Part shown: positions 58,953 to 59,520 of the stretch, piece by piece | Layout of the letters: every line of letters begins with the position of its first letter | Numbering within the stretch: the first letter of the stretch is position 1 | NCBI GenBank assembly: GCA_004322365.1 | Contig: SCTS01000007.1 | Span: 18,266-82,265 of the forward strand | Source of the DNA: Patescibacteria group bacterium | GTDB taxonomy: Bacteria; Patescibacteriota; Minisyncoccia; Phycocordibacterales; Phycocordibacteraceae | DNA length: 64,000 nt | Direction of reading: 5' to 3' | Made by a program: the position numbers and the translations under genes | The notes under the pieces: model-generated | The model's input: the letters and a program-made list of their open reading frames with translations, nothing else | Told to the model about the DNA's origin: nothing | Databases searched by the model: none

Positions 58953-59432
58953 GTGCGTGAGTTATATAAAAGAAAACCGAACACGAAATGTTCAACCTGT
59001 GACAAGCCAATCTACAGGCGCCCTCTTGAGCTCAAACGCGGACCTGTGTTCTGCACCTCCCTATGCTACGGAAAAGCAAATAGAAAAGAAAGACCGTGTG
59101 TCGTCTGCAACAACCCTATCTTGGCAAGAGCAAACAAAAAAACATGCAGTAGAGGTTGTGCAAATAAGAACCGGGCAGGTATCAAGTACGGCACCAAAAG
59201 ACCTTATGATAAGGTGCAGAACGAAAGAACCATCAAGCTACGCGTATTAGAGCTTCGTGGAGGAAAGTGTGAGCGATGCGGATATAGTAAAAAGCAAATT
59301 CTGCATGTGCATCACAAGGACAGGAATCATAGCAACAATGAACTTCATAATCTTGAATTAATCTGCCCAAATTGCCACTACGAAGAACACTATTTAGAGA
59401 AAAGCTGGCTAAATGATACAGTGGGTCACTAA
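58953..59432 (+). CDS. HNH endonuclease with an N-terminal Cys-rich zinc ribbon
   Basis: C-terminal …GGKCERCGYSKKQILHVHHKDRNHSNNELHNLELICPNCH…. The stop codon lies 1 nt before the tRNA-Ser 5' end. Confidence 0.85.
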   Translation: MRELYKRKPNTKCSTCDKPIYRRPLELKRGPVFCTSLCYGKANRKERPCVVCNNPILARANKKTCSRGCANKNRAGIKYGTKRPYDKVQNERTIKLRVLELRGGKCERCGYSKKQILHVHHKDRNHSNNELHNLELICPNCHYEEHYLEKSWLNDTVGH

Positions 59433-59433
59433 C

Positions 59434-59520
59434 GGAGAGGTGGCAGAGTGGTCTAACGCACCGCACTTGAAATGCGGCGTCCGGGGAACTGGACCGAGAG
59501 TTCGAATCTCTCCCTCTCCG
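59434..59520 (+). tRNA. tRNA-Ser (anticodon TGA), class II long variable arm; no CCA encoded
   Basis: GGAGAGGTGGCAGAGTGGTCTAACGCACCGCACTTGAAATGCGGCGTCCGGGGAACTGGACCGAGAGTTCGAATCTCTCCCTCTCCG. Confidence 0.9.

Follow-up and report, generated by a model that had tools for sequence, protein, structure and literature searches.

Results

An HNH nuclease gene ends one nucleotide before tRNA-Ser(UGA)

The stretch of DNA analyzed here, which we refer to as the window, comprises 64,000 nucleotides (nt) from a Patescibacteria group bacterium (assembly GCA_004322365.1, contig SCTS01000007.1, positions 18,266 to 82,265 of the forward strand). It harbors an open reading frame (ORF) for an HNH nuclease that is followed, after a single base, by the gene for tRNA-Ser(UGA) (Table 1). 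Read directly from the sequence, the junction consists of GGT CAC TAA C and then GGAGAGGTGGCA, with the stop codon TAA at 59430-59432, C59433 as the sole spacer base and G59434 as position +1 of the tRNA, which begins GGAGAGG. ARAGORN placed a tRNA-Ser(tga) at 59434-59521 and the Rfam tRNA model matched 59434-59520 with 55.9 bits; the 1-nt gap described in the original prediction is thus borne out by the sequence and by both programs. That prediction had also considered a misplaced stop or start. The junction ...CACTAAC/GGAGAGG is identical in L001 and L008 (L numbers denote the loci of our comparison), which shows that the stop codon is not shifted by a sequencing error, and the GTG start, located immediately 3' of an in-frame TGA, is backed by a promoter-to-start spacing that is fixed in 82/96 loci (see below). 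There is one HNH copy in the window. The gene neighbors of the HNH/tRNA pair encode DUF5652, RuvX, a tRNA-binding protein (tRNA_bind) and PilM, as assigned by Pfam, and the ORF list shows other window genes to be tightly packed too.

Table 1 Features of the HNH/tRNA-Ser(UGA) locus, in window coordinates
Feature	Position	Strand	Details
P1, promoter-like element, extended -10 TGgTATACT	58938-58946	+	TG 58938-39, TATACT 58941-46, then GTG 58953
HNH nuclease ORF	58953-59432	+	159 amino acids (aa), GTG start, TAA stop
Two CxxC...CxxxC zinc-ribbon-like repeats	58989-59159	+	C13, C16, C34, C38 and C49, C52, C65, C69
HNH catalytic core, residues 106-146	59268-59390	+	C106, C109, H120, H121, N129/N133, C138, C141, H142, H146
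P2, putative promoter in last ORF codons	59394-59422	+	-35 TTAGAG 59394-99, 17-nt spacer, -10 TACAGT 59417-22
tRNA-Ser(UGA)	59434-59520	+	Class II, long variable arm, CCA not encoded; ARAGORN, Rfam
23-bp perfect hairpin	59517-59563	+	Inverted repeat I1; 5' arm starts in last tRNA bases
Variable insertion	59625-61514		1,890 nt; 61 nt in L001, 778 nt of other sequence in L007
Direct repeats, family D1	59657-59674 and 60620-60637		GAATCTCACCTC...; tRNA-Ser-3'-end-like
Insertion ORF	59716-60342	+	208 aa
Insertion ORF	60357-60563	-	68 aa
Insertion ORF	60670-61347	-	225 aa

Domain structure of the HNH protein

The HNH ORF passes the Pfam HNH model PF01844 (23.8 bits against a cut-off of 21.4), with residues 106-146 matched, and all of the core residues listed in Table 1, comprising the ββα metal-finger and cysteine ligands, are invariant alignment columns. 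The eight cysteines of the two N-terminal zinc-ribbon-like repeats are likewise invariant in the family alignments A2 and A3, and the repeats presumably form the DNA-binding region. PHROG 1271, which is annotated as HNH endonuclease, spans residues 8-145 of the window protein with an E value of 2e-17. An AlphaFold model, which like the cluster-representative search below was based on database proteins, had a predicted local distance difference test (pLDDT) score of 82.8. Its comparison to the PDB by Foldseek returned generic HNH domains only, such as those of Cap5, McrA and T4 endonuclease VII, and the PDB sequence search gave merely marginal HNH matches (E above 0.08); neither search identified the N-terminal domain or the target of the protein.

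Only HNH models match the window protein, and no GIY-YIG domain is found. The protein is not a member of Zorya ZorE, as the NCBIfam score is 20.7 bits against a cut-off of 600; the PADLOC matches to the ZorE and HEase HNH models are weak and confined to the HNH core, and no Zor genes lie near the locus. The gene also differs from the intron-encoded HNH class: the tRNA is uninterrupted, the ORF lies entirely 5' of tRNA +1, and Rfam detects no group I or II intron at the locus.

Pairing with tRNA-Ser across the family

A protein search yielded 1,156 homologues, nearly all of ~159 aa and with 62-93% identity. On the first six contigs tRNA-Ser(UGA) begins 1-5 nt past the stop, including on two contigs where the neighbors are different and the identity is only 66%. 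A genome scan with one genome per species gave 78 Patescibacteria loci, which span Paceibacteria, Kaiser-, Nomura-, Taylor-, Jorgensen-, Yanofsky- and Daviesbacteria, among others, and these together with metagenome loci make up 96 unique HNH-positive loci. In 96/96 of them tRNA-Ser(UGA) lies downstream on the same strand, at -62 to +89 nt from the stop: the stop codon is inside the tRNA in 28 loci (overlap 1 to 62 nt), 42 loci have a gap of 0-9 nt between stop and tRNA +1, and 26 have a gap of 10-89 nt. Odd loci still adjoin a tRNA-Ser, which is upstream in L059 and L080 and on the opposite strand in L068, and the order in L021 and L042 is tRNA-Ser(GCT), HNH, tRNA-Ser(UGA). When 1.84 billion cluster representatives were searched with a profile, 809 proteins of the same layout came out at E below 1e-10. 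The pairing of HNH and tRNA-Ser is far beyond chance and is a property of the whole protein family.

Promoter-like elements at both ends of the gene

Comparison of the loci revealed two promoter-like elements, P1 upstream of the ORF and P2 in its last codons, neither of which was listed by a generic promoter scan. The P1 motif, TGnTA[TCG]AnT and usually (G)TGGTATACTGG, is present in 83/96 unique loci, and in 82 of these the start codon (64 GTG, 18 ATG) lies exactly 6 nt past the hexamer, a spacing that predicts a leaderless HNH mRNA. In the P1 region the window and L001 share 100% identity despite the diverged ORF. Elsewhere in the window, the motif TGnTAnnnT occurs 6-7 nt before other long ORFs (13131-15329 on the plus strand; 22231-23289, 43881-44471 and 52005-52349 on the minus strand); given this geometry, leaderless mRNAs may be common in this genome.

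P2 includes an extended -10, with a TG at 59414-15 inside the spacer, and its -10 hexamer ends 11 nt before tRNA +1. The segment encodes the conserved C-terminal peptide YLEKSWLxG, and the underlying DNA string TTAGAAAAAAGCTGGCTnAnTGGTAnnnT is itself conserved across loci. Among the 96 loci the strict motif TGnTAnnnT peaks 11-14 nt from tRNA +1, and in loci with a longer spacer between ORF and tRNA extended -10 motifs are located in that spacer instead. The background of the 12-nt P2 core motif elsewhere in the loci is 0.003 per 110 nt. Five HNH-less loci (L143, L144, L176, L184 and L189) are deletion remnants that retain only the last 45-85 nt of the gene, ending at the tRNA, and in all five the deletion endpoint lies immediately upstream of the -35. 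Because the remnants are restricted to the P2 segment, the nuclease gene appears to contain a separate promoter for the tRNA.

According to the original prediction, the tRNA must share the transcript of the nuclease or be processed from its mRNA. This necessity is not supported: a P2-like promoter lies in the last ~40 nt of the ORF and gene-deleted HNH-less loci retain exactly this segment, so release from the nuclease mRNA is not the only possible source of the tRNA. Read-through from P1 is still likely, since there is no terminator between the HNH gene and the tRNA. P1 and P2 are predicted to act as promoters, and we refer to the gene together with both elements as the cassette.

Occupancy and exchange at tRNA-Ser(UGA) loci

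To sample tRNA-Ser(UGA) loci blind to HNH, a 39-nt tRNA pattern was used on metagenome loci with enough upstream sequence. The HNH gene is present in 27/93 unique loci and close relatives differ in its presence; the gene is dispensable and polymorphic. Between L013 (HNH-positive) and L134 (HNH-less) the flanks are 90-93% identical and the tRNAs 100% identical. The L013 cassette consists of 537 nt (about 10 nt, P1 and the ORF) placed exactly between '...actctt' and tRNA +1, while the empty L134 allele has its own -10 (TATAAG) 6 nt before tRNA +1. The cassette is thus polymorphic, being present or absent at a single fixed position in closely related genomes. Two ideas were rejected on the basis of this pair. 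The first, that the HNH gene had captured the original promoter of the tRNA, fails because the L013 cassette brings its own P1 and the old spacer 'actctt' remains to its left; the second, that the occupied allele is as a general rule protected by a variant tRNA sequence, fails because the two tRNAs are identical.

Other pairs differ in the tRNA as well. L025 (HNH-positive) and L149 (HNH-less) share 99% identity over 200 nt downstream and differ in HNH and in the tRNA-Ser allele, indicating that gene and tRNA were exchanged together; the donor of the L025 cassette was not identified, the best HNH match having 68.6% identity. L015 (HNH-positive) and L111 (HNH-less) have both flanks in common, with the tRNA inverted and of another type, and in L212-L218 a 22-nt 5' stub of a different tRNA-Ser lies upstream of the cassette. 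L080, L081 and L063 are HNH pseudogenes and L077 carries a 50-aa insertion. Together, the three pseudogenes, the L077 insertion and the five deletion remnants fit a cycle of invasion, degeneration and loss.

The surroundings of these tRNAs hold further tRNA-like sequence. Some 100 nt upstream of tRNA-Ser(UGA), L140 and L156 have tRNA-Ser-3'-end-like endings (GAATCCTCCCGCTTCCGCA) after long non-tRNA sequence, at a position where L129 has a normal tRNA-Ser(CGA); they may be interrupted or expanded tRNA genes.

Selection and divergence

The HNH gene is under purifying selection, with a ratio of nonsynonymous to synonymous divergence (dN/dS) of 0.04-0.15, and this low ratio together with the invariant zinc and catalytic ligands indicates that intact copies are functional. 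The synonymous divergence (dS) of HNH is discordant with that of the neighboring genes, and it is so in both directions. Between the window and L001, dS is 0.545 for HNH, 0.041 for RuvX and 0.124 for tRNA_bind, and the corresponding values for the window and L007 are 1.26, 0.26 and 0.11; between L067 and L082 HNH has a dS of 0.51 and RuvX of 2.27, the tRNA_bind value being not available. A sliding comparison with L001 gave identities of 97-100% for the flanks, 80-93% for the ORF and 100% for P1 and the tRNA. Judged from these alignments, the confinement of divergence to the ORF would fit an allele exchange limited to the cassette. Over positions 58820-58940, which cover the 3' end of DUF5652 and the spacer that precedes P1, identity to L001 drops to 31-70% in surroundings of 97-100%. 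This region is the left edge of the variable HNH segment, and DUF5652 has 94 aa in the window and 76 aa in L001.

Relatives in viral contigs

A search of viral contigs with the family alignment revealed full-length homologues of 40-50% identity in contigs of 78-452 kb, where the neighboring ORFs match PHROG families. The order in L205, L207, L209, L219 and L224 is tRNA-Cys, HNH, tRNA-Ser(GGA), with the ORF extending into the tRNA, while L212-L218 have HNH and then tRNA-Ser(UGA). More distant homologues, of 31-39% identity, sit within long phage tRNA arrays. In 50,697 deposited phage genomes, tblastn gave no match to the window protein at E 1e-5. Members of the family have their fixed place at the 5' edge of tRNA-Ser genes, of the UGA type on the chromosomes of Patescibacteria and of the GGA type in the tRNA arrays of large phages. 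The original prediction had described an unusually tight coupling of a mobile-element-type nuclease to a tRNA gene, a view supported by the presence/absence polymorphism, the deletion remnants, the pseudogenes and these phage homologues.

In the tRNA arrays of L209, L219 and L224, tRNA-Ser occurs as four or five isoacceptors. Those of L209 and L224 further include a tRNA with the anticodon CTA (labeled Pyl by ARAGORN), a hint that a stop codon is reassigned in these large phages.

The 3' side of the tRNA

The hairpin that begins in the last bases of the window tRNA is presumed to be a terminator or a 3'-processing signal; its stem is kept in L001 and L007 through compensatory changes. CCA is encoded in the L007 tRNA and not in that of the window. 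The stretch past the hairpin, 59564-59624, is conserved in L001. The fold z-score of 59434-59680 is -7.1, dominated by the tRNA and the hairpin, and Rfam at a relaxed threshold over 58850-61600 detected nothing credible besides the tRNA, including in 59564-59624.

Beyond this stretch lies the variable insertion, whose 1,890 nt stand against 61 nt in L001. None of its three ORFs has a Pfam, PHROG or PADLOC match. The 208-aa ORF is 100% identical to NCBI EPO14_03895 (Patescibacteria) and belongs to a family of 245 members with 60-76% identity, which is found elsewhere ~90 nt 3' of tRNA-Gln (L234-L236) and beside a tyrosine integrase (L232). By our own comparison with the tRNA alignment, the direct repeat at 60620-60637 agrees at 17/18 positions with the tRNA-Ser type that has a GGAGGAG acceptor, which is found in other lineages such as L011, and at only 14/18 with the window tRNA. 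In sequence, both repeats look like attachment (att)-type integration scars of elements from other hosts. With an insertion that is absent from L001 and bears tRNA-Ser-3'-end-like repeats, the earlier picture of mobile DNA on both sides of the same tRNA is correct.

Integrase-mediated islands use the 3' ends of tRNA genes as anchors. The cassette resembles them in having a tRNA gene as its anchor, and the 3' side of the window has such insertions with tRNA-3'-end-like repeats. The cassette itself differs, being ~0.5 kb long, placed 5' of the tRNA and devoid of an integrase and of att-type direct repeats, and it does not qualify as a tRNA-targeting integrative element.

L013 has a 564-nt insertion (3794-4357) directly 3' of the tRNA that is absent from its close relative L134 and may encode an α/β-hydrolase-like protein, a candidate from sequence reading; with the 5' cassette, both sides of the tRNA vary between these two loci. 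Right after tRNA-Ser, L025 (4584-4830) and L149 share a ~230-nt block that is 99% identical and ends in a second tRNA-Ser-3'-end-like sequence (GAATCCCACCCCCTCCGCC), with complete divergence beyond it. The block is probably the remnant of a small integrated element.

Discussion

Drawing on its anatomy, conservation, patchy occupancy, deletion remnants, purifying selection and discordant divergence, we think it probable that the HNH ORF is a free-standing gene of the homing endonuclease type, specialized on the 5' edge of tRNA-Ser and carried as a cassette with P1 and P2. The gene lies outside any intron or intein and has a conserved promoter-like motif of its own, 6 nt before the start codon, in 82/96 loci. 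An arrangement of this kind is unusual for bacteria, yet has a direct phage precedent in T4 segB (PMC2330249).

In the mechanism that we propose, the home site of the cassette would be the -1/+1 boundary of tRNA-Ser genes. P1 would start transcription at the GTG or ATG to give a leaderless nuclease mRNA, and P2 would restore transcription of a tRNA that the insertion had severed from its own promoter. Insertion would then be nearly cost-free, P2 being the functional equivalent of hiding in a self-splicing intron. Transcripts that read through from P1 would be cut by RNase P at tRNA +1, which in the window is 1 nt past the stop; in 28/96 loci this cut would precede the stop codon, and the resulting stop-less mRNAs would keep nuclease expression low, as proposed for T4 segB. 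The nuclease would cut or nick HNH-less tRNA-Ser loci, whose repair would copy the cassette in, sometimes with the adjacent tRNA allele. Later deletions would remove the gene, with selection permitting loss only up to P2.

A bolder version, which we offer tentatively and regard as unlikely, would make HNH and tRNA-Ser together a self-propagating cassette that circulates between Patescibacteria and large phages, destroys resident tRNA-Ser alleles and installs its own allele and promoter. It would amount to a gene drive on the genetic code machinery, possibly in phage-host conflict, and be throttled by RNase P via stop-less mRNAs in ~30% of loci.

Several observations weigh against a homing cassette. 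We infer nuclease activity, the target or cleavage site, transfer by homing and the activity of both promoters, and the strict P2 motif is present in just about 38/96 loci. RuvX synteny is found in 7/37 HNH-less loci compared to 8/13 HNH-positive ones, and its rarity in the former means that part of the HNH absence reflects lineage structure. Near-identical HNH copies are not found in any pair of distant genomes, the identity of HNH correlates positively with that of its flanks (Pearson 0.58), and RuvX, tRNA_bind and PilM remain syntenic with it; inheritance thus appears to be vertical for the most part, and loss alone could account for the patchiness. If real, movement of the HNH gene takes place mainly among relatives. 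The identical tRNAs of L013 and L134 imply that tRNA sequence alone cannot make an occupied allele immune, and strong purifying selection across the radiation is also expected of a useful host gene.

Such a host gene is the alternative that survives best, and we give it a small but real chance. The HNH protein would have been domesticated for a cellular role in DNA uptake, in repair or linked to tRNA-Ser, and inherited vertically since an early Patescibacteria ancestor; it would stay beside the tRNA because the overlap of the ORF with the tRNA promoter leaves no neutral breakpoint. The dN/dS values, the conserved neighborhood and the single copy in the window all agree with this, as does an HNH identity that plateaus at 60-70% across lineages in which RuvX has only 35-45%, with no near-identical distant copies. 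A domesticated gene is harder to reconcile with its lack in ~70% of the sampled tRNA-Ser(UGA) loci, with presence that differs between close relatives, and with pseudogenes and several clean deletions that spare only the promoter. It also sits poorly with homologues that occupy the same position in phage tRNA arrays and with an HNH dS that departs from that of its flanks in both directions.

We see only a slim chance that the nuclease is instead a weapon, which would destroy the tRNA-Ser genes or DNA of competitors by phage-phage or phage-host marker exclusion or as a defence while the linked tRNA supplies the lost function. Its family is common to bacteria and large phages, always beside tRNA-Ser, and in L025 and L212-L218 the HNH gene travels together with a tRNA allele of its own. 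T4 SegB offers a parallel, as it excludes the tRNA region of T2L (PMC2330249) and, in a recent study, is tied to evasion of a tRNA-cleaving defence (PMC13096335). The PADLOC matches to ZorE and HEase HNH models point the same way, but they are weak and, like the NCBIfam scores, domain-level matches only, conserved partner genes for defence are lacking beside HNH, and tRNA alleles with and without HNH can be identical. A passive adjacency, in which compaction of a small genome placed an ordinary HNH gene beside a tRNA with no functional or evolutionary link, is in keeping with the compact Patescibacteria genomes and the tight packing of other window genes, but is highly improbable given that the pairing recurs in 96 unique loci while all other neighbors vary, and recurs with a different tRNA-Ser isoacceptor in viral contigs.

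If the gene is a homing cassette, its closest analogue would be T4 SegB, with a likeness in position and presumed mode of action and not in family. SegB is a homing endonuclease of the GIY-YIG family whose free-standing gene lies among the tRNA genes of the phage; it recognizes the tRNA T-psi-C element and drives the inheritance of its own gene along with adjacent tRNA genes (PMC2330249). During tRNA-Arg processing the segB mRNA is severed after its last sense codon, just ahead of the stop codon, a step proposed to limit expression, and no promoter is reported close to the segB 5' end (PMC2330249). Nor is a promoter for the downstream tRNA described within segB, an element that the present HNH family is predicted to carry. 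In both systems a free-standing nuclease gene lies between tRNA genes, with an ORF that runs up to the 5' end of the tRNA that follows. SegB differs in being GIY-YIG, phage-borne and active on many tRNA genes rather than those of one amino-acid family, whereas the HNH family is bacterial as well as viral and tied to tRNA-Ser.

The F-Tfl genes of phage T5 belong to the HNH family. They lie in a phage tRNA cluster, and transcript processing has been proposed to lower their expression (2004, cited in PMC2330249), features in which they resemble the present gene. As far as the source describes them, they are limited to the phage context and not tRNA-Ser-specific, and the tblastn search of phage genomes described above detected no sequence match between them and the window protein. 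Within Patescibacteria, group I introns of tRNA-Asn carry HNH homing endonucleases at anticodon position 35/36, so that phylum, nuclease superfamily and tRNA landing site are in common (PMC13011429). The present gene, in contrast, is not inside the tRNA but flanks it on the 5' side, has no intron and would rely on promoters in place of splicing. MobE of phages T4 and Aeh1 is a free-standing HNH homing endonuclease between nrd genes that, like the cassette as we interpret it, sits between conserved genes and is mobilized with flanking DNA; it differs in the absence of an adjacent tRNA and in its domain layout, which is without the double zinc-ribbon N-terminus (PMC2790892). A limited literature search did not turn up any account of an HNH gene located 5' of tRNA-Ser in Patescibacteria.

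If correct, our interpretation would extend the tRNA-cluster homing endonucleases known from phages T4 and T5 to the chromosomes of a major uncultured bacterial phylum and would give an example of homing endonuclease specificity for one tRNA family. It suggests a third route to a harmless selfish nuclease, besides introns and inteins, in which a replacement promoter in the last codons serves the interrupted gene and RNase P separates the products. The natural deletion series would define this promoter in organisms not amenable to culture. The 5' edge of tRNA-Ser(UGA) would be a recombination hot spot, which bears on synteny and tRNA evolution in Patescibacteria, and the HNH nuclease itself may be a compact sequence-specific enzyme with a conserved target site.

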